Shown: piece after piece, positions 4,373 to 64,000 of the stretch
Layout of the letters: each line of letters starts with the position of its first letter
Numbering within the stretch: position 1 is the first letter of the stretch
NCBI GenBank assembly: GCA_041674805.1
Contig: JBAYVA010000001.1
Span: forward strand, 326,612-390,611
From: Candidatus Magasanikiibacteriota bacterium
GTDB lineage: Bacteria; Patescibacteriota; Patescibacteriia; Magasanikbacterales; UBA922
Length of the DNA stretch: 64,000 nt
Direction of reading: 5' to 3'
Notes under the pieces: generated by a model
Databases searched by the model: none
The model's input: the letters and a program-made list of their open reading frames with translations, nothing else
Told to the model about the DNA's origin: nothing
Position numbers and translations under genes: made by a program

Positions 4373-5284
4373 TTACGTCCTAAGATATCTATTCATTGCA
4401 AAACCACTAGAAATCATAGTGAGTAACAAAACTATCACAAATTCTCCTCCCAAAACAAAAAGTAAATTTTCTGATAAATATGATGACAACAAATTTTGTT
4501 TTTCAAAGATAACACCAATATATGGATCCAAAATTTTCAAAAAGAAATTTACCATCACATAAGTCAAAGATACACTAATAACACTAAATATAAAAGATTC
4601 TATCAAATAAGGGCCTCTAATAAACCAACTTGTAGCCCCTACAAGGCGTTTTATGCCTATTTCAGCACGTTGGGTATATATTGCGACTCTTATAGTATTA
4701 AAGATGATTATAAACGAAATTATCGCAAATAAAATTGTTAGAAAATACGTAAATTTTTGTACATTGGTAGTGATAGAATGAATTCTATTTATAGCCGTCT
4801 GAGTGTCTCCAAAAGTCTTGGCTTCAATAATATTTTCATATTCTGGCACACTCAAAGCTTCTATTATTTTTTCATAATCTTTTGGCTCACGAGTTTTGAT
4901 AATCAAAGTTGGACCCAAAGGATTTTCTGTCAATTCATTCAAAGAATCCAAAACATCTGGATTGTCAGCATAAACTGTTTTGAAATTTTCAAAAACTTCT
5001 TCTCTTGTCATAAAAGTTTCTTTTTCTACTTCTGGAAAAGAACCAACATAATCTCTAATTTCAGTAATTTCTTCTTCGGTTGCTTCTGGATCAAAATAAA
5101 TACTCACGTCTATTTGTTTTTTTACAGCAATGATAGATTCATCGGTCAAAATTTTTACCACCACCAAAGTATTAATAGATAAAAGCATCAAAACCAAAAT
5201 AAGTACTGTCATAATAGACAAACTCATATTGCGTACAATTTCTTGAAAAGAAAATTTTATAATACGAAAAAATCCTGCAAACAT
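4373..5284 (-). CDS. ftsX: cell division ABC transporter permease FtsX
   Basis: FtsX-like topology: a TM helix, a large extracytoplasmic domain and three C-terminal TM helices. The track ORF extends to 5353 and would overlap ftsE by 65 nt, so the internal Met at 5282-5284 (MFAGFF…) immediately after the ftsE stop is the more likely start. Confidence 0.7.
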   Translation of the reverse strand: MFAGFFRIIKFSFQEIVRNMSLSIMTVLILVLMLLSINTLVVVKILTDESIIAVKKQIDVSIYFDPEATEEEITEIRDYVGSFPEVEKETFMTREEVFENFKTVYADNPDVLDSLNELTENPLGPTLIIKTREPKDYEKIIEALSVPEYENIIEAKTFGDTQTAINRIHSITTNVQKFTYFLTILFAIISFIIIFNTIRVAIYTQRAEIGIKRLVGATSWFIRGPYLIESFIFSVISVSLTYVMVNFFLKILDPYIGVIFEKQNLLSSYLSENLLFVLGGEFVIVLLLTMISSGFAMNRYLRT

Positions 5285-6102: not shown

Positions 6103-6183
6103 GTAAAAAAATACAAATTACAATTTATAAAATACTTTTATAATAATTGAAATTTTTTTATTTTTAATTGTAATTTTTTATAG

Positions 6184-6268
6184 TGCGGATAAGAAGATTC
6201 GAACTTCTATTTTTGATTACAAAAAAATTTTTTCTATAATCAACGTAATGCCATTATACTATACCCGC
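6184..6268 (-). tRNA. aberrant tRNA-like gene with a 14-nt insertion in the anticodon-loop region (identity unresolved; possible pseudo-tRNA)
   Basis: Reverse complement shows canonical acceptor GCGGGTA/TATCCGC, T8, D-loop AATGGCA with G18G19, G26 and T-arm AGAAG-TTCGAAT-CTTCT. Between the anticodon stem halves TTGAT…ATCAA lie 21 nt (tatagaaaaaatttttttgta) instead of 7. The arm can also fold as a 7-bp stem ttgatta/taatcaa with a 17-nt A6T7 loop. Confidence 0.45.
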
Positions 6269-6301: not shown

Positions 6302-7441
6302 CTATTTTTGAGCTTCTGTATCTTCTACCACCTCTTCTGAAACTTCTAGATTTTCCAAATTATCTACATTATCTACTTGTGGATCAGCAAATAATTCTGC
6401 AAAAGGATTATGAATGTTTAAAAGAACTTCAATTTTAGCAGACATCAATTTTTCATTCATAAAAGTACGGAAATTGTTCATATTAGCATCTTCAATTCCA
6501 CTAAATGGGAAAAGAATATGTCTAGCTTTAACTTGTTCTACATCTTCACCTGTTGTTTCATCTTTTTCTACTTTTTTATCAGTAACTTGTAAAATATGAT
6601 AACCAAAAGTAGTTTTTACCAAATCTTCGTTCAACTCACCTTTTTTCAAAGAAAAAGCCACTTCTTCAAATTCAGGTACCATCATACCACGACTAAACCA
6701 ACCTAAATCACCACCTTGTGTAGCAGTACCATCAGTACCATATTCAGCTGCCATTTTTGCAAAATCTTCTCCTTCTTTGATAGCTTTCAAAATTTCCAAA
6801 GCTTGCATACGAACTGTTTCTTCATCATTATTTTCAATAGGATTTTCTTCTACATATTTAGCAGCTAACTTCTTTTCTAATTCTGTTGGATAAACTATTT
6901 TTGAAACAAATTCATCCAAAGTCCAACCATATCTAGCCATTATTTCTGTTTCAGCTTCTTCTTTACTAGCAAAACTTGGCAAAATTTGTTCATCTACAAT
7001 CTTTTGTAAATCTTCATCACTTACAGAAACTTTCATTTCTTTGGCAACTTCTTCTACTAATGTATTTATCAATAAACGACTCAAAACAAAATCTGATTTT
7101 TCTTCTTCTTTTGGAGCTACTTCACCAGAAGTATCTGTAGCATAAAATTTTTCCATTGCTTGAATATTATCAATATAATCACTATATTTTATTTTTTGAT
7201 TATTGATACTAGCTACAGGCATAGCAAAAAAATCAGCTGTTTTCAAAACTACTTCCCCTCTTGATAAATTTTTGACTTGACTAAAAGTTACGGCATAAAA
7301 AATACCGACACCAATAATAAGAGCGGCAACAAAACCACCACCTATAATAATTAAAGGATTTTTTTTATTTGGTGTTTCTACAGATTGGACAGGCTGTGTT
7401 GACAACTCCTCTTGTGGAGTCATTTTTTGTTCTTCTGACAT
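6302..7441 (-). CDS. membrane-anchored PpiC/parvulin-type peptidyl-prolyl cis-trans isomerase (PrsA/SurA-like)
   Basis: N-terminal TM helix. C-terminal parvulin signature GGDLGWFSRGMMVPEFEEVAFSLKKGE…TTFGYHILQV. Confidence 0.75.
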   Translation of the reverse strand: MSEEQKMTPQEELSTQPVQSVETPNKKNPLIIIGGGFVAALIIGVGIFYAVTFSQVKNLSRGEVVLKTADFFAMPVASINNQKIKYSDYIDNIQAMEKFYATDTSGEVAPKEEEKSDFVLSRLLINTLVEEVAKEMKVSVSDEDLQKIVDEQILPSFASKEEAETEIMARYGWTLDEFVSKIVYPTELEKKLAAKYVEENPIENNDEETVRMQALEILKAIKEGEDFAKMAAEYGTDGTATQGGDLGWFSRGMMVPEFEEVAFSLKKGELNEDLVKTTFGYHILQVTDKKVEKDETTGEDVEQVKARHILFPFSGIEDANMNNFRTFMNEKLMSAKIEVLLNIHNPFAELFADPQVDNVDNLENLEVSEEVVEDTEAQK

Positions 7442-21595: not shown

Positions 21596-21889
21596 TTACT
21601 CTTTATTTTTCATATAGCATTCACGACAGAAAATGTCACTACCTGCTTTAGGTTCGAAAGGCAATTGTGTGATGTGAGTACCACAACCAGCACAATTTAC
21701 ATCTACATCGAACATTCTTTTTTGAGGGCGAGCTCCGCCATTACGTTCATCACGATGAGCGCGATTACAATCTTGACAGAAAACTGGACGGTCTCCTGAA
21801 GGTTGAAAAGGCAATTGTGAAATGTGAGTACCACATTTTGCACAACTTAGATCAACGTTGAACATTTCTCTTGGTCCTTGATTATACAT
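21596..21889 (-). CDS. tandem zinc-ribbon (2 x CxxC…CxxC) small protein
   Basis: 97 aa made of two near-identical halves: CAKCGTHISQLPFQP…FCQDC and CAGCGTHITQLPFEP…FCRECY. Confidence 0.5.
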   Translation of the reverse strand: MYNQGPREMFNVDLSCAKCGTHISQLPFQPSGDRPVFCQDCNRAHRDERNGGARPQKRMFDVDVNCAGCGTHITQLPFEPKAGSDIFCRECYMKNKE

Positions 21890-22097
21890 AGTATACGTTC
21901 CAAATTGGTTATTAATAAATTTTCCGACCTTTTGGGAACGTACTATTTTTTTCTAAAAACATAAAGGGAATTAAAAATCTCGTTACCCATAAATATAATA
22001 GCAAATTTACTATTTTTAGTCAATTATTCTATAAACAGGTAATATACAATAAGCAAATTACAATAATTTTTTGTATATTAAAAATTATAATTTTATA

Positions 22098-59875: not shown

Positions 59876-60880
59876 TTACTTCTTAGAAATCTTTTGCCAG
59901 AAAACCAACAAAGGACTAGCAATAAAGATAGAAGAATAAGTACCAAAAGAGATACCAATGATAAGTGCCAAAACAAAATAATGAATAGTACTACCACCAA
60001 AAAAGAATAACGCAATTAATACTAATAAAGTCGTGAAAGAAGTATTGATAGAACGAGAAATTGTCTCATTGACACCTTTGTTAACAATATTTTCAAAATC
60101 ATCATAACCATATTTGATCAAATTTTCACGAATTCTGTCAAATACGATAATAGTATCATTGACTGAATAACCCAAAATAGTAAGAAGAGCAACCACAAAA
60201 GGTATATCTACCTCTACACCCATATATTTGCCAAGAAAGGCAAAAACACCCATAGTAATAAATACATCGTGGATAAGAGCCACTACAGCGGTTACACCGT
60301 ATTTCCAAGAATGTATTGGCTTTGAAACTTTTCTAAAAGCATAAGTAATATACAAAACAATGGCAATAACTACAGCGATACCAGCTTCAAAAGTTCTACT
60401 TTTCATTTGTGAACTTACTGATGAACCAATTACTTCCAAACGTTCTTCTATCAATCTATTTTCTGGTTTTTCAGCATCAAACTTATCTTCTACTGCTACA
60501 AAATTAGGATCCTTTACAGCTTCTGGATCAATCATTACATCTACCATTATGTTTTCAAATTCAGAACGTAAATTTGCCAAAATTTCTTGATGTTCATCTT
60601 CTGAAATAAATCTCATTTTCAAAATATAAGCATTTTCACCAGTTGGTTGTACCAAAACACTACCATAAGTACCATCAGCAAATTGAGCTTGCATACTTTC
60701 CAAATCAGGTCTTTCACTAGTAAAACTTATTTCCATAAGTGAACCACCAGTAAAATCAATACCTGGTTTCAAACCAAATGTAATAACTGCAAACAAACTT
60801 ACTAGCAATAATACTCCCGAGAAAATAAAGAATATATTTCTATTTTTTACGATATTGAGCATATTTTTATTCTTTTTCAT
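59876..60880 (-). CDS. secF: protein translocase subunit SecF
   Basis: SecF N-terminal TM helix plus periplasmic domain and the conserved 5-TM C-terminal SecD/SecF region. Overlaps secD by 14 nt. Confidence 0.85.
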   Translation of the reverse strand: MKKNKNMLNIVKNRNIFFIFSGVLLLVSLFAVITFGLKPGIDFTGGSLMEISFTSERPDLESMQAQFADGTYGSVLVQPTGENAYILKMRFISEDEHQEILANLRSEFENIMVDVMIDPEAVKDPNFVAVEDKFDAEKPENRLIEERLEVIGSSVSSQMKSRTFEAGIAVVIAIVLYITYAFRKVSKPIHSWKYGVTAVVALIHDVFITMGVFAFLGKYMGVEVDIPFVVALLTILGYSVNDTIIVFDRIRENLIKYGYDDFENIVNKGVNETISRSINTSFTTLLVLIALFFFGGSTIHYFVLALIIGISFGTYSSIFIASPLLVFWQKISKK

Positions 60881-62912
60881 TATTAATAAAAGTACCTAGA
60901 AACAACCAACCACCATCACGCTTTTTGAACCAAGGTACTACAAATCTAAGCATCACACGAGTAATGATAATCGCACTAAACATAGACAAAGATACACCAA
61001 GGAAAAGAGTAATAGCAAAACCTTTGACAAAACTTGTACCAAACCAAATCAACAATAAACAAGTAATCAAAGTTGACATATTACCATCAAAAATAGATGA
61101 CCACGCACGTTTGAAACCTTCTTCTACTGCTGCTTTTAAACTTTTACCACTTCTCAATTCTTCTTTTAGACGTTCAAAAATAAGAACATTAGCATCAACT
61201 GCCATACCAATAGAAAGTATGAAACCAGCAATACCAGCCAAAGTCAACGTAACTCCTATCAACTTGAAAATAGCCAAAGTCAACGTAATATAAAGAGATA
61301 AAGCAATGACAGACAACAAACCAGGCAATCTATAATAAAACAACATAAATAACATGACCAAAATCACACCAACAATACCAGCATACAAACTAGAAGAAAC
61401 AGATCTATCACCTAGACTTGCTCCGACTGTTTGTTGAGAAATAAGATTTACAGGTACTGGCAAAGCACCAGCATTCAATCTTTGTGAAAGCAATCTAGCT
61501 TCTTGTAAGGTAAAACTACCAGTAATAACAGCACGTCCATCAGTAATAGCAACTTGTACAACTGGAGCACTAATTATTTCATTGTCCAAAAATATTGCAA
61601 CTTGTTGACCAACATTACGTTTGGTAATATCTGCAAAAAAATCTTTACCTTCACTATCAAAATTCAAAGCTACTTGAATAGCACCAGTTTGACCATCACT
61701 AACTACTTCAGAACGTTCTAGATTTTTACCAGATAAACTAGTATTTTTCCAAGGTTCTTGTGGAGGCAAAATATCTGTAGAAGATTTGGTATTTACCAAA
61801 ATTCTCCACATTTCGTATTCTTTGGTAGTTCTTTCATCTTTTTTGAAAATGACATGATAACCAAATTGAGTTTCTACTGGTCCAATGATTTGACCTTTTT
61901 CTGCAGGAAATATAGCATTTTCAAATTCTGTTACCATCATACCAGCAGAAAACCAGCCAAGTTCACCACTGTTTTGTGCTACACTTGGATCTGTAGAATT
62001 AGTTTTGGCTAATTCAGCAAAATTATCAGCAGTCGCTTGATCATAAATTTCTTGAGCTTTTGCCAAAGCTTGTTCTTTGGTAAAATTTTCTGTATTACAA
62101 TTGGTAGCACCAGTATAACAAATCAAAATATGACTTGCTTCAACTTCTTTTTGTCCTTCACGTTCCTCACCTCTTTTGACGATATTGAAACCTTCAGTAT
62201 TTTCAATCAAAGTTTTACTGACTTCATTTACTTTGGCAGTCTTTGCCCAATCGTATAATTCAGTATAAACAGAACTACTACCAACATAATCTAAATATCC
62301 ACCATTGTTTTTACTATTTTCATCCTCAGAACTTTCACGTGCAATATCTTCAAAAACACTATTTTTTACTTTTGTTTTTTTCAATAAATCATTTGCTTTT
62401 ATTTTTGCTTCTTTATTATAAGTATCTAATTCTTTTTGTTCATCAGCGGTCAATTCACGAGCTGGTTCATTGTTTATTTCTTTGAATTCCAAAATAGGTG
62501 TAGTACCAATCATCGCAATAGCTTGATCTACATCAGAGACACCTGGTAATTCAATAATAATTCTATGTGCATTTCCTACTTCTGTTGTTTGTACTTGTGC
62601 TTCAGAAACACCAAGACCATTTATTCTTTTTTCAATTACATCACGCACACCTTCTACAGCAGCACCTTCTTCACCAGCTTGAATATTACTTGTGTCAGCT
62701 TCATAAACCAAATGAGCACCACCTTGCAAATCAAGACCTAAACGAAATTGTTTTTCAGGAAAATGAGGCAAACCTAATTTGACAGTAGTATTCACCCAAT
62801 CAATACCTTTGTTAAAAAATTGTGGACTAACAAATACACTAGATATGAATAAAAGTGCAATGATTCCAAAAATTCCCCATCTTAATTTGCCACGAATATT
62901 TGCTTTTGTCAT
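60867..62912 (-). CDS. secD: protein translocase subunit SecD with an embedded PpiC/parvulin-type PPIase domain
   Basis: SecD N-terminal TM helix, P1-domain sequences and C-terminal 5-TM region (…LSIGMAVDANVLIFERLKEE…). The periplasmic domain contains a complete parvulin signature: ASHILI…NSGELGWFSAGMMVTEFENAIFPAEKGQIIGPVETQFGYHVIFK. Confidence 0.85.
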   Translation of the reverse strand: MTKANIRGKLRWGIFGIIALLFISSVFVSPQFFNKGIDWVNTTVKLGLPHFPEKQFRLGLDLQGGAHLVYEADTSNIQAGEEGAAVEGVRDVIEKRINGLGVSEAQVQTTEVGNAHRIIIELPGVSDVDQAIAMIGTTPILEFKEINNEPARELTADEQKELDTYNKEAKIKANDLLKKTKVKNSVFEDIARESSEDENSKNNGGYLDYVGSSSVYTELYDWAKTAKVNEVSKTLIENTEGFNIVKRGEEREGQKEVEASHILICYTGATNCNTENFTKEQALAKAQEIYDQATADNFAELAKTNSTDPSVAQNSGELGWFSAGMMVTEFENAIFPAEKGQIIGPVETQFGYHVIFKKDERTTKEYEMWRILVNTKSSTDILPPQEPWKNTSLSGKNLERSEVVSDGQTGAIQVALNFDSEGKDFFADITKRNVGQQVAIFLDNEIISAPVVQVAITDGRAVITGSFTLQEARLLSQRLNAGALPVPVNLISQQTVGASLGDRSVSSSLYAGIVGVILVMLFMLFYYRLPGLLSVIALSLYITLTLAIFKLIGVTLTLAGIAGFILSIGMAVDANVLIFERLKEELRSGKSLKAAVEEGFKRAWSSIFDGNMSTLITCLLLIWFGTSFVKGFAITLFLGVSLSMFSAIIITRVMLRFVVPWFKKRDGGWLFLGTFINNEKE

Positions 62913-63234
62913 AAACTTATTTTTTTCAACAAAATCGTTGAATTATTATTTTTTAAATACTTAAAACTTCTCTACTAAAATAATAGTAGTCAATTGGTCA
63001 ATATTGTATCTATTTACCAATAAAAAGTCAAGCATACTTAGTAACAATAATAGCTTGACAAGTTATATAGCTCTATTTAGCAATACGCTTTCAAATTGAT
63101 TATTATTTCAATCTAAAATTTACAACTCCAAATACCAACTTCTAAATTTAAAATAATTTATATTTAAAGTTTTAAATATTAAAAAAACAACACCAAATAT
63201 AAGTGTTGTTGCAAAAAATAAAAAAGATTTTTGT

Positions 63235-63272
63235 CGCCCGCCGTCGCCCCAAAGTTTGGGACGGCGGCGAGC
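63235..63272 (-). terminator. GC-rich Rho-independent terminator
   Basis: On the minus strand, cgccgccgtccc-aaacttt-ggggcgacggcgggcg followed by acaaaaatcttttttatttttt. Confidence 0.5.
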
Positions 63273-63282
63273 ATGACGCAGT

Positions 63283-63424
63283 TCATTGATGCCTTCTTTT
63301 TGTCTTGAGCACCACCCACCTTCCTCTCGTTCGTCTGAGCCAGCGGACGAAACGGAAAGTTGAATAGCACACCAAAACTGAAAAGCAAACAGCAATTACT
63401 GCGAAAATGATCAAAATAATCATG
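63283..63424 (-). CDS. candidate small hydrophobic peptide (46 aa, basic C-terminus) in GC-rich island
   Basis: MIILIIFAVIAVCFSVLVCYSTFRFVRWLRRTRGRWVVLKTKRRHQ. The track gives longer alternatives (63283-63492 and overlapping frames), so the frame choice is uncertain. Confidence 0.3.
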
Positions 63425-63629
63425 CCCAACTCCTTTGTCTCTGCCCCTCGCAGAGAACACCTAAAATTAGCATATTTTTTCAAAAATGTCAATAAAAAAA
63501 GACAGCCACAAAGCTGTCATAATAATCTGTGTAATCTTTTTAAACTCAGTAAAATCAGTGTCTGAAGTGAAGGCGCGCCCGGATTGTGGATCCAGGCGGG
63601 CCATAATTTTTTTTCTGAAATAGACGACG

Positions 63630-63812
63630 CTAGTCGCTTTCGTCTGGTTCAGAAGCCCTCTCTCGCTTGTCTACCATCCATGACCAAACGAGGCAGGCGA
63701 CAGCAAGAACAGCGAGAATGATTTTGTACTCCATGGTTCCCTCACTACCCGCGAATTGCAGGATTAACAAAATAATAGCAAAAAACAGCCAAAAAGTCAA
63801 TGCTTTAGCCAA
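63630..63812 (-). CDS. candidate small membrane peptide(s) (60 aa or two shorter peptides) in GC-rich island
   Basis: MAKALTFWLFFAIILLILQFAGSEGTMEYKIILAVLAVACLVWSWMVDKRERASEPDESD. A GC-rich hairpin (ggcgcgcccgg…ccaggcgggcc) follows. Confidence 0.3.
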   Translation of the reverse strand: MAKALTFWLFFAIILLILQFAGSEGTMEYKIILAVLAVACLVWSWMVDKRERASEPDESD

Positions 63813-63877
63813 AATTTGAGTATTTTAGTATGATTCTTTTAAAATAAAAAACTCTCGTTTTTGACGAGAGTTTGTAT

Positions 63878-63960
63878 TCAAGATACAAGTTACAAGAAAC
63901 AAATTCCAAATACCAATTTATTTTTGATTTAGGATTTATGATTTTTGATTTGTTTGTATC
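63878..63960. repeat. AT-rich palindromic intergenic repeat (third member of the acaaattccaaata family)
   Basis: caagatacaagttacaagaaacaaattccaaatacc … ttgtttgtatcttgtttcttgtt, with inverted arms. Confidence 0.45.
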
Positions 63961-64000
63961 TTGTTTCTTGTTATTTAAACAACTATTTAGGATCCATGAC

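Follow-up and report, generated by a model that had tools for sequence, protein, structure and literature searches.

Just upstream of secD, in a 64-kb stretch of a Candidatus Magasanikbacteria (CPR) genome (hereafter the window), lies a GC-rich island made up of two tandem paralogous units on the minus strand, units A and B. An earlier note on this DNA had described an island of about 600 nt with raised GC content, and the composition bears this out: 63230-63830 is the most GC-rich segment of that length in the window (0.441, against a mean of 0.317), the highest single 600-nt window starting at 63233 (0.443, z ~3.5). Among 200-nt windows, those at 63564 (0.52) and 63234 (0.505) rank second and third, and only a tRNA region is higher.

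Each unit comprises, from 5' to 3', a promoter, a 5' stem-loop, a Shine-Dalgarno (SD) sequence and ATG, a small ORF coding for one transmembrane (TM) helix and a charged tail, a long GC-rich hairpin, and a separate AT-rich terminator (Table 1). By motif prediction, each has its own promoter and terminator and yields an mRNA of about 270 nt, and these motifs are kept in the orthologues. The two short minus-strand ORFs described in the note, one with a basic and one with an acidic tail, are both present, as is the long GC stem-loop that follows each of them. A role for these stem-loops as terminators was rejected, however, as AT-rich intrinsic terminators are found further downstream, at 63210..63186 (unit A) and 63518..63501 (unit B), the ordinary terminator lying about 50 nt beyond the part of the mRNA that holds the GC hairpin and the anti-SD. 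The note had also left the reading frame uncertain on account of two longer overlapping ORFs, 63120..63395 and 63179..63460. These cross the hairpins and terminators and have neither an SD nor a conserved start, and the true frames are the two small ORFs.

Table 1. Features of the two units and of the sequence upstream of unit B (positions in the window)
Feature	Position	Strand	Basis or remark
Terminator hairpin upstream of unit B	63849..63873	-	Terminator scan; a near-identical hairpin in L001 ends the upstream gene
Unit B conserved upstream element ACTAAAATACTCAAATTTTGGCTAAAGCA	63801..63829	-	About -70 to -36 relative to the transcription start
Unit B promoter TTGACT, 17 nt, TATTAT, with TG ahead of the -10	63772..63800	-	Promoter scan, 10/12
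Unit B 5' stem-loop CCUGC-AAUUC-GCGGG, at the mRNA 5' end	63748..63762	-	Pairing probability >0.9
Unit B Shine-Dalgarno region AGUGAGGG, 4 nt before the ATG	63739..63746	-	Read directly in the sequence
Unit B ORF, 34 aa, MEYKIILAVLAVACLVWSWMVDKRERASEPDESD	63630..63734	-	ORF translation and hydropathy
Unit B 3' UTR GC-rich hairpin, 12 bp, one mismatch	63572..63602	-	Folding prediction
Unit B anti-SD CCUUCACU (CCUUCAC)	63573..63566	-	Predicted partner of the SD, 5'-3' long-distance interaction
Unit B conserved CGCCTTCACTTC after the GC hairpin	63564..63575	-	Invariant in 4/4 orthologues; unique in the window
Unit B intrinsic terminator GACAGCUUUGUGGCUGUC and U-run	63494..63518	-	Terminator scan; conserved in orthologues
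Unit A promoter, perfect -35 TTGACA, 17 nt, weak -10 TAATTT after TG	63464..63492	-	By eye; not flagged by the scan
Unit A 5' stem-loop UCUCUGC-GAGGG-GCAGAGA	63438..63456	-	In MFE and centroid structures
Unit A Shine-Dalgarno AAGGAG, 6 nt before the ATG	63430..63435	-	Read in the sequence; duplex energy -7.9 kcal/mol
Unit A ORF, 46 aa, MIILIIFAVIAVCFSVLVCYSTFRFVRWLRRTRGRWVVLKTKRRHQ	63283..63423	-	ORF translation and hydropathy
Unit A long imperfect hairpin within the CDS	63278..63402	-	In MFE and centroid structures
Unit A GC-rich hairpin right after the stop codon	63235..63273	-	Folding prediction
Unit A intrinsic terminator AACAACAC…GUGUUGUU and U-run	63179..63210	-	Terminator scan

The paralogy of the units is apparent both in the peptides, where IIFAVIAV in A corresponds to IILAVLAV in B with synonymous differences, and in the DNA, where the repeats D2-D4 recur at a spacing of about 310 nt. 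The unit B peptide consists of the TM helix IILAVLAVACLVWSWMV, a KRER motif beside the membrane and an acidic end (…EPDESD), and its best 17-residue mean Kyte-Doolittle (KD) hydropathy is 2.6. In the unit A peptide, the TM helix IILIIFAVIAVCFSVLV reaches 3.4 by the same measure and is followed by a very basic tail with a net charge of +10. GC3 is 0.47-0.62 in the small ORFs, compared with 0.23 genome-wide. For the 7-nt SD core of unit B, GUGAGGG, the duplex energy against the anti-SD is -6.1 kcal/mol. Elsewhere in this genome, strong SD sites are uncommon.

Homologues of the units were recovered with an exact 19-mer metagenome scan and a protein-seeded genome scan, which reach close relatives only. 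Orthologues of unit B occupy the same place, between secA and secD, in three other Magasanikbacteria lineages. In the loci L001, L004 and L115, and for a partial copy in L118, the module is found with secA (or a SET-domain gene) on one side and secD on the other, and those of L087, L090 and L119 are the L004 module except for one upstream nucleotide. SecD is 78-81% identical to that of the species carrying orthologous units. For the unit A ORF, no orthologue turned up elsewhere. Its -35 and flanking sequence are common to a second unit present in L001 and L115, but the idea that these are orthologues was rejected, since the promoter and two short motifs are all that they share; a MAFFT alignment of the two is unreliable.

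As to whether the island is absent from relatives, the answer is mixed. L001, L004 and L115 possess unit B, but neither unit occurs in L003 or L005, where secA and secD are kept and the gap holds different orphan genes. The Magasanikbacteria loci L006-L008 and L010-L012, which are more distant, lack the units too. No conserved small TM ORFs were found upstream of secD in more distant relatives. The secA-secD gap is a variable accessory hot spot in which the units are patchily distributed.

Within the orthologous units, conservation is distributed unevenly. The promoter and UTRs are 66-94% identical, compared with only 50-58% for the CDS, a difference that points to regulatory constraint at the RNA level. 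The unit B promoter is also found in L001, L004 and L115, and the block formed by it and the upstream element retains 85-94% identity over four orthologous units, again above the CDS. The element is unique in the window and is a candidate operator or UP element. At the protein level, the orthologous ORFs of L001, L004 and L115 encode peptides of 30-37 aa from the same ATG, each with a TM helix (KD 2.2-2.7), and the tails vary from acidic to basic to absent. None of them has lost the SD, the ATG or the open frame, which spans 30-37 codons; every peptide holds a segment of TM grade (KD 2.2-3.4), and the other two reading frames are mostly closed. The small ORFs are therefore coding, as the ATG, the open frame and a TM helix persist throughout and many of the changes are synonymous.

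Both transcripts are predicted to be exceptionally stable. Relative to shuffled sequences, their folding z-scores are -7.3 (unit A) and -3.9 (unit B), and their MFEs of -111.8 and -91.6 kcal/mol compare with -49.7 ± 7.7 kcal/mol (minimum -69.6) for the 272-nt 5' regions of 53 genes from the same window. In unit A, a U-rich arm coding for the TM helix pairs with a purine-rich arm coding for the tail. In unit B, the 5' stem-loop is 100% paired in the four orthologues, with two one-sided C-to-U (G.U) changes, and the GC hairpin is kept in all of them (91% paired, one-sided U/C changes). These structures rest on thermodynamic prediction and sequence conservation, with four distinct sequences.

The SD core of unit B has an unpaired probability of only 0.02, the lowest relative to the 53 genes. 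The probability of its pairing with CCUUCACU is about 0.9 in the window and 0.69 in L001, and it is weaker in L004 and L115, such that this SD lock is weakly predicted in those two loci as well as in unit A. The start region as a whole (-14 to +2) is not unusual in its accessibility (0.35-0.40, compared with 0.45 ± 0.14), and only the unit B SD core is exceptional. The lock helices are 87-100% paired in the four orthologues. They contain no double compensatory changes, which is uninformative rather than negative because only four distinct sequences are available. The modeled folds suggest that the SD and anti-SD of unit B form a 5'-3' lock like that of the hok or aapA1 mRNAs.

Type I toxins are described as having an mRNA of 150-400 nt, a hydrophobic peptide, a 5' stem-loop and an SD/anti-SD pair, and further by a 5'-3' long-distance interaction, a terminator and tandem repeats (PMC8594479). 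The peptides of 34 and 46 aa fall below the usual limit of about 60 aa for a hydrophobic TM toxin, the predicted units of about 270 nt fit the size of a stand-alone mRNA, and unit B is predicted to possess both the anti-SD lock and the 5' stem-loop. The likeness to a type I toxin that the earlier note had proposed is thus upheld in part, by the tandem hydrophobic peptides, the heavily structured independent mRNAs and the predicted SD lock, whereas no antisense or complementary antitoxin RNA, the component that defines such systems, was found. The units contain neither a sigma-70-like promoter nor a terminator that is conserved on the antisense strand, although promoter prediction is weak in an AT-rich CPR genome; a GC hairpin followed by T8 on the plus strand (63570-63612) occurs in this window only. 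No Rfam antitoxin family matched the island. The neighboring unit was considered as a trans-acting antitoxin and rejected: the 5' region of each unit has no significant complementarity to the RNA of its neighbor, the duplex energies are no better than those of shuffles, and the hypervariable segments of L001 and L115 show no cognate-specific pairing. A whole-transcript duplexfold between units is not meaningful.

No known protein family matched either. Against Pfam and NCBIfam, five peptides gave no family at cut-off and sub-threshold matches to generic TM segments only, and no profile of a known type I toxin family matched (Hok, Ldr, Fst, TisB, Ibs, ShoB, TxpA/BsrG and others in Pfam/NCBIfam). 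No homologues were found in sets of 5.8 billion and 1.84 billion proteins, the queries in the word-indexed searches being the 46-aa peptide and a 60-aa extended form of the 34-aa ORF. The sole phmmer match of the 46-aa peptide, a repetitive 344-aa protein, was discarded as spurious.

The best reading of these observations, at a little below an even chance, is that the variable secA-secD hot spot harbors a new family, restricted to this lineage, of membrane peptides that are translationally gated and resemble type I toxins. On this reading, translation would be gated, the peptides may be toxic to the membrane, and an antitoxin of some kind might exist. Each unit would give rise to an mRNA of about 270 nt whose GC content and tight folding are unusual in a 32%-GC genome, and the full-length transcript would most likely be stable but translationally locked. 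Opening of the lock, whether by 3' processing, by refolding or by a regulator that works through the conserved upstream element, would allow the peptide to be made. This single-pass peptide, probably oriented N-out/C-in with its charged tail, would insert in the membrane and behave as type I toxins do, disturbing the membrane or the proton-motive force and so causing growth arrest. As for its distribution, the module is an accessory cassette, restricted to a lineage and found in the variable secA-secD gap of only some Magasanikbacteria.

Among characterized systems, hok/Sok and AapA1/IsoA1 share with the units a short independent mRNA, a hydrophobic peptide of 30-50 aa, a 5' stem-loop, and tandem or multicopy loci with a patchy chromosomal distribution. 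In these mRNAs, and by prediction in unit B, an anti-SD near the 3' end, beside a stable hairpin, sequesters the SD and leaves the full-length transcript inert (PMC8594479). Unlike these systems, the units have no identifiable Sok- or IsoA-like antisense RNA, no mok-like leader ORF and no sequence similarity, and a 3'-processing step is purely conjectural here. In TisB/IstR-1, DinQ/AgrB and ZorO/OrzO, the antitoxin lies 5' of the toxin without overlapping it, and toxin transcription is under a regulator. Their resemblance to the units lies in the small TM peptide, in a structured primary transcript that is predicted to be poorly translatable, and in the conserved element upstream of the unit B promoter, which suggests transcriptional control. 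However, no LexA-like box was recognized, the divergent promoter-like motifs upstream of unit B (63806-63845, plus strand) are not conserved in L001, and an RNA made from them would have no complementarity to the unit B mRNA. In the Gram-positive systems Fst/RNAII, TxpA/RatA and BsrG/SR4, a convergent antitoxin overlaps the 3' end of the toxin. The units resemble these in their long structured 3' UTR (about 135 nt), where an antisense RNA overlapping the 3' end would typically act, and in a TM helix with a charged C-terminus, but they possess no conserved convergent promoter or bidirectional terminator, and read on the other strand their terminator lacks a U-run.

Type I toxin-like modules have been catalogued in T1TAdb for only 218 bacterial species (PMC8594479), and the literature searched yielded none from the Candidate Phyla Radiation. 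Given the tiny genomes and episymbiotic lifestyle of CPR bacteria, any 'selfish' or stress-response module that is retained is informative. If the peptides are gated membrane toxins, they would offer a first handle on RNA-based post-transcriptional control in these uncultivated bacteria, as well as on their mechanisms of growth arrest or competition.

Many small membrane proteins are not toxins; AcrZ, MgtS, KdpF and CydX, for example, are non-toxic and have conserved sequences and fixed partners. The peptides could be benign regulators or accessory subunits of this kind, with the mRNA structure serving stability or conditional expression, an explanation that is rather unlikely yet deserves serious weight. 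They resemble such proteins in their size, in their single TM helix and in being of a class often omitted from annotation. The ORFs are real, no antitoxin is detectable, the conserved upstream element suggests ordinary transcriptional regulation, and the secA/secD neighborhood fits a role in the membrane or in secretion. Conversely, a subunit bound to one fixed partner would not be expected to be hypervariable, with varying tails, within a conserved RNA frame, and the close relatives L003 and L005, which keep secA and secD, lack the units, as do the more distant loci named above. The extreme structure of the mRNA and the SD lock suggest that expression is prevented by default, and tandem duplication is more typical of toxin loci.

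A variant of the toxin-like reading dispenses with the antitoxin: the units might belong to a purely cis-gated system of membrane-peptide cassettes specific to CPR bacteria, which is improbable on present evidence. The ultra-conserved frame of RNA and promoter (upstream operator, 5' hairpin, GC clamp with anti-SD, and terminator) would here host a hypervariable CDS, and the cassette would be exchanged or diversified among strains. L001 and L115 are otherwise 95-100% identical, with troughs in the identity between them. Such exchange would point to conflict between strains or to a part in the interaction of episymbiont and host, resembling pherotype or bacteriocin-like diversification, rather than to classical toxin-antitoxin addiction. 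The hypervariability of the peptide CDS, sharply confined within the conserved RNA frame, offers a signal that population genomics could test. A diversity-generating retroelement was rejected as its cause, as there is no second copy within ±10 kb, the substitutions seen on inspection of the CDSs are of mixed base types, and they peak at codon position 3.

That the units are two structured non-coding RNAs in which the small ORFs are incidental is very unlikely. In its favor, a GC-rich island in an AT-rich genome often turns out to be an RNA gene, and folding is predicted to be very strong. In L001 and L115, the neighboring second unit, which has the promoter of unit A, does look non-coding: its folding z-score is -8.4, its stem keeps pairing through compensatory changes, and it has no TM ORF, its 70-aa ORF being without homologue. 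Yet the SD, the ATG and the TM-encoding frame are kept in the orthologues and the paralogue although nearly half of the nucleotides differ. Over 30 codons, L001 and L115 have 9 identical, 10 synonymous and 11 non-synonymous codons (the last mostly conservative), with differences at codon positions 1/2/3 of 9/6/15, an enrichment of synonymous and third-position changes. This coding-type conservation argues against a conserved structured RNA in place of either gene. With Rfam 15, only tRNAs exceeded the gathering score in the window, and no known non-coding RNA was detected in the island at E-values up to 10 or with ARAGORN; the best Rfam match there (E = 0.011, 23.7 bits against a cut-off of 38) was driven by the terminator. 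Islands of this type in AT-rich CPR genomes can thus mark unannotated small-protein genes as well as RNA genes.

The chance that the island is a recently acquired fragment from a phage or plasmid, or from a donor of higher GC content, as the earlier note had offered as an alternative, is very slim indeed. GC and GC3 are far above the genomic norm, strong SD sites are otherwise scarce, the cargo of the secA-secD gap differs among relatives, and an 18-nt direct repeat (16/18; 63124-63141 and 63902-63919) flanks the island. However, the repeat is near chance expectation (by the author's estimate, about 0.1-0.2 such pairs) and is missing from all other loci, the promoters and terminators are of the kind usual in the host, and the GC excess is explained by the stems. 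Two conserved DNA patterns were absent from viral contigs, no phage matched, and the plasmid matches were only chance AT-rich ones of 42 nt. Since same-position orthologues occur in at least three other Magasanikbacteria lineages, at the SecD identities given above, acquisition was not recent.

Least credible of all is the notion that the units encode SecM-, MifM- or VemP-like leader or arrest peptides that sense secretion or insertion into the membrane and regulate secDF: although secD lies directly downstream of the units (with secA upstream of them in L004 and L115) and they would present a hydrophobic nascent chain followed by RNA structure, coupling of that type to a downstream Sec/YidC gene is contradicted by the strong intrinsic terminator that ends each unit, by the opposite-strand 232-aa gene that sits between the units and secD in L001 and L115, by the relatives in which secA and secD persist alone, and by secD's own conserved promoter about 100 nt upstream, TTGACT-17-TACAAT at 63031..63003 (TTGACG-17-TACAAT in L004).

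The GC content of the island at 63230-63830 is 44.1%, against a window mean of 31.7%, and the richest 600-nt window of the entire 64 kb starts at 63233 (z about 3.5), which confirms the GC-rich island of the earlier note; the two 200-nt GC peaks of the island (0.52 and 0.505) are outranked by a tRNA region alone. Both minus-strand small ORFs and both GC hairpins were likewise recovered exactly where that note had placed them. One correction to it is that the hairpins are not terminators: a separate AT-rich intrinsic terminator lies about 25-55 nt downstream of each ORF-plus-hairpin. The minus strand of the island comprises two units in head-to-tail arrangement. GC3 is 0.47-0.62 in the small ORFs versus 0.23 in long ORFs, so that the GC excess lies in stem-building codon choice and not in amino-acid content.

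Features of the two mini-gene units of the island
Feature	Position	Strand	Remark
Unit B, whole	63829..63494	-	starts with conserved upstream block
Unit B promoter TTGACT-17-TATTAT	63800..63772	-	promoter scan 10/12, with TG
Unit B 5' stem-loop CCUGC/GCGGG	63762..63748	-	
Unit B SD AGUGAGGG	63746..63739	-	
Unit B ORF, 34 codons	ATG at 63734, end 63630	-	
Unit B GC hairpin	63602..63572	-	
Unit B CGCCTTCACTTC	63575..63564	-	AU-rich spacer, then terminator
Unit B intrinsic terminator, AT-rich	63518..63501	-	terminator scan
Unit A, whole	63492..63179	-	
Unit A promoter: perfect -35 TTGACA, weak TG-extended -10		-	
Unit A 5' stem-loop	63456..63438	-	then SD AAGGAG
Unit A ORF, 46 codons	ATG at 63423, end 63283	-	
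Unit A GC hairpin	63273..63235	-	
Unit A intrinsic terminator, AT-rich	63210..63186	-	terminator scan

Judged by their sequences, units A and B are paralogues: three segments are repeated at about 310-nt spacing, with 70% column identity overall, and the peptides have a common TM core (IIFAVIAV vs IILAVLAV) encoded with synonymous differences. Downstream of this core, CAGACGAA is common to both units but is read in different frames, as AGA-CGA (Arg-Arg) in unit A and GAC-GAA (Asp-Glu) in unit B, which would account for one strongly basic (+10) and one acidic tail. We infer this frame-shift origin from what is a short match. Both mini-ORFs carry strong, well-spaced SDs, unusual for a genome in whose window such sites are nearly absent: an SD duplex at least as stable as -6 kcal/mol was found at the annotated start of 1/53 ORFs of at least 120 aa, and at 10/53 when any in-frame start within the first 60 codons was allowed.

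To find homologues, GTDB genomes were scanned with the SecD protein as seed, and the loci obtained were then compared by blastn and nhmmer. Unit-B homologues occupy the same position, upstream of secD, in two relatives' loci, L001 (8335-8680) and L004 (4745-5100), with secA immediately upstream in the latter. An exact 19-mer scan of metagenomes yielded 39 stretches, 5 of which were confirmed by nhmmer; stretches L087, L090 and L119 are the L004 allele, and L118 holds a truncated unit-B copy. In the fifth, L115, the gene order is secA, unit a (the unit-B-like peptide unit), unit b and a reverse gene. Among the four alleles, identity is 85-94% in the upstream block plus promoter, 66-92% in the 5' UTR, 68-84% in the 3' UTR and 50-58% in the CDS. 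In L004, a near-consensus promoter directed toward secD (TTGACA-16-TATTAT, 11/12; 5071-5098) overlaps the peptide unit's terminator stem.

The predicted transcripts fold with minimum free energies of -111.8 (unit A) and -91.6 kcal/mol (unit B), or z of -7.3 and -3.9 relative to dinucleotide shuffles, while 272-nt segments at the starts of 53 other window genes gave -49.7 +/- 7.7 kcal/mol (minimum -69.6). A predicted hairpin of unit A spans about 125 nt and pairs the U-rich arm coding for the TM helix with the purine-rich arm coding for the tail. Directly 3' of the GC hairpin, CGCCTTCACTTC is identical in 4/4 alleles. In whole-transcript partition-function folds of the window unit B, the SD core pairs with CCUUCACU, the conserved anti-SD of the 3' UTR, at p about 0.9; this pairing has p 0.69 in L001, and competes with alternatives in L004 and L115. 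In unit B the SD core has an unpaired probability of 0.02, and in each of the 53 genes the best SD-like heptamer is more accessible than this; in unit A the value is 0.33. Averaged over -14..+2, the start regions of the units are not unusually closed. Of the pairs counted on the alignment of the four alleles, 93% are standard, and four one-sided C/U changes keep G.U pairs. Double compensatory changes are absent because only four sequences are available, so that covariation does not prove the predicted unit B structure, which is nonetheless plausible and conserved.

Features by which type I toxin loci are recognised include mRNAs of 150-400 nt, a hydrophobic peptide, 5' stem-loops, SD and anti-SD, 5'-3' long-distance interactions, terminator stem-loops and tandem repeats (T1TAdb paper, PMC8594479), and unit B and its orthologues display each of these in silico. 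The type I toxin-antitoxin reading proposed earlier is supported as regards small hydrophobic peptides, structured mRNAs and the toxin side, but an antitoxin RNA was not found. On the antisense side, the four alleles have no conserved sigma-70-like promoter or terminator in common. On the plus strand, ATAAT8 follows the unit B GC hairpin, and the two could form an antisense RNA end; the T-run is missing from L001, L004 and L115. Divergent promoter-like motifs at 63806-63845 are common to L115 but not L001, and the resulting RNA would lack complementarity to the mRNA. The RNA of the adjacent unit pairs with the 5' region no better than a shuffle. Rfam gave no antitoxin match for the island, and Pfam and NCBIfam gave no toxin family match for the peptides. 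On the toxin side, the locus thus behaves in silico like a type I toxin gene; that it belongs to the class is unproven, and its sequence excludes it from any known family. That the units are type-I-toxin-like gated membrane peptides is given a little under an even chance; the main rival, that they are benign small membrane proteins, is rather unlikely. As type-I-toxin-like genes, they would be new sequence orphans in a phylum for which the literature searched describes none.

That the ORFs are incidental features of a non-coding RNA is improbable. Despite the divergence, no allele has lost the SD or the ATG, whose position is the same throughout, and the frame stays open for 30-37 codons; in each peptide (those listed being MVGSTDYSGLSFSLIFVIALIWVLLQRPHV, MVEHGDYSGLLFSVMFLLALLWVLCQRPRVGRRRKRH and MVYVYTTLAMIPVCLLLVWCRRNDIRDGVSTRDDGD) a variable charged tail follows a hydrophobic segment of TM grade. 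Of 30 codons compared between L001 and L115, 9 are unchanged, 10 show synonymous differences and 11 non-synonymous ones, most of which exchange one of I, L, V and M for another. Codon positions 1/2/3 account for 9/6/15 of the differences, and alternative frames are mostly closed. This conservation, together with the synonymous pattern, argues for translated genes, and the small ORFs can with high confidence be considered real, unannotated small-protein genes. For unit A, the data searched contain no orthologue; its putative coding status rests on the SD and ATG, the clean TM helix and protein-level paralogy to unit B.

The genome is that of a Candidatus Magasanikbacteria member (CPR/Patescibacteria), and the 681-aa ORF at 60867..62912 (-) encodes SecD, followed by SecF and ComEC; the nearest SecD relatives (77-81% amino-acid identity) come from Magasanikbacteria or Patescibacteria-group MAGs. 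The secA-secD gap is variable. Loci L003 and L005 hold an unrelated orphan gene of 165-189 aa on the opposite strand, with a 94-aa orphan ORF also in L003, while in L001 and L115 unit a is accompanied by a different unit b and a 232-aa orphan gene; accessory genes seem to insert preferentially in this gap. As to whether relatives lack the island, the units are absent from the more distant Magasanikbacteria loci L006-L008 and L010-L012, which have neither gap nor such ORFs, and unit-B homologues are present at the same site in L001, L004 and L115. Searches of phage, plasmid and viral collections turned up nothing similar. The patchy distribution, fixed site and lack of mobile-element matches together indicate an accessory, lineage-restricted module that different species have inherited at one fixed site, and the earlier suggestion of a recently acquired foreign fragment is accordingly very doubtful. 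Also improbable is a SecM-, MifM- or VemP-like secDF leader, as each unit ends in a terminator and secD is served by a separate, conserved promoter.

The orphan genes at L003 8700-9750 and L005 3300-3900 are of elevated GC and have no Pfam match, and a GC-rich hairpin (…CCGACGACA…TGTCGTCGG…) adjoins the opposite-strand orphan gene. An 18-nt direct repeat flanks the island (63124-63141 and 63902-63919; 16/18, with exact 12-mer TCCAAATACCAA), and just upstream (63887-63976) is an AT-rich inverted repeat whose 24-nt arms are 79% complementary. The 12-mer has 0 occurrences in 119 fetched loci; the direct repeat is near chance expectation, and its role as an insertion scar is putative and unproven.

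L001 and L115 are 95-100% identical across 1.4 kb but for two sharp troughs, one over the unit a peptide CDS and the start of the 3' UTR (L001 8429-8577, 40-72% identity), the other over one unit b hairpin (L001 8738-8817, 72-80%), whose stem appears, on inspection of the two sequences, to be kept via compensatory changes. The pattern is not that of a diversity-generating retroelement, and no cognate RNA-RNA complementarity was found between the two variable segments. It suggests old-allele replacement by recombination (cassette swapping) in a conserved frame, or focused diversifying selection. The RNA of unit b itself (L001 8702-9065; L115 about 6670-7033) is GC-rich, about 330-360 nt long and folded into five hairpins (MFE -150.7 kcal/mol, z -8.4). 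The unit has a terminator and a TTGACA promoter of its own, and shares this promoter and two short motifs with window unit A. A TM ORF is lacking, Rfam gave no match, and none of the sets searched contained a homologue of the 70-aa ORF of the unit, which is probably a CPR ncRNA not described before or a peptide unit that has decayed.

Elsewhere in the window, SecD carries an inserted PpiC-type peptidyl-prolyl isomerase (rotamase) domain (residues about 243-356) between the P1 N-terminal and P1 head subdomains, which appears common to close Magasanikbacteria relatives (matching over residues 1-681). An 85-nt tRNA-like gene at 6183-6268 (-) (Rfam tRNA, 51.5 bits), to which ARAGORN assigns a four-base 'anticodon' (atag) but no amino acid, has an A/T-rich insertion in the anticodon arm (…GTTGATTATAGAAAAAATTTTTTTGTAATCAA…); the tRNA may contain an intron or be atypical in some other way. 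Finally, an ORF of about 90 aa at 21600-21890 (-), which lies between two larger genes where GC is locally raised, encodes two repeats of a CxxCG…FxP…CxxC zinc-ribbon-like motif.
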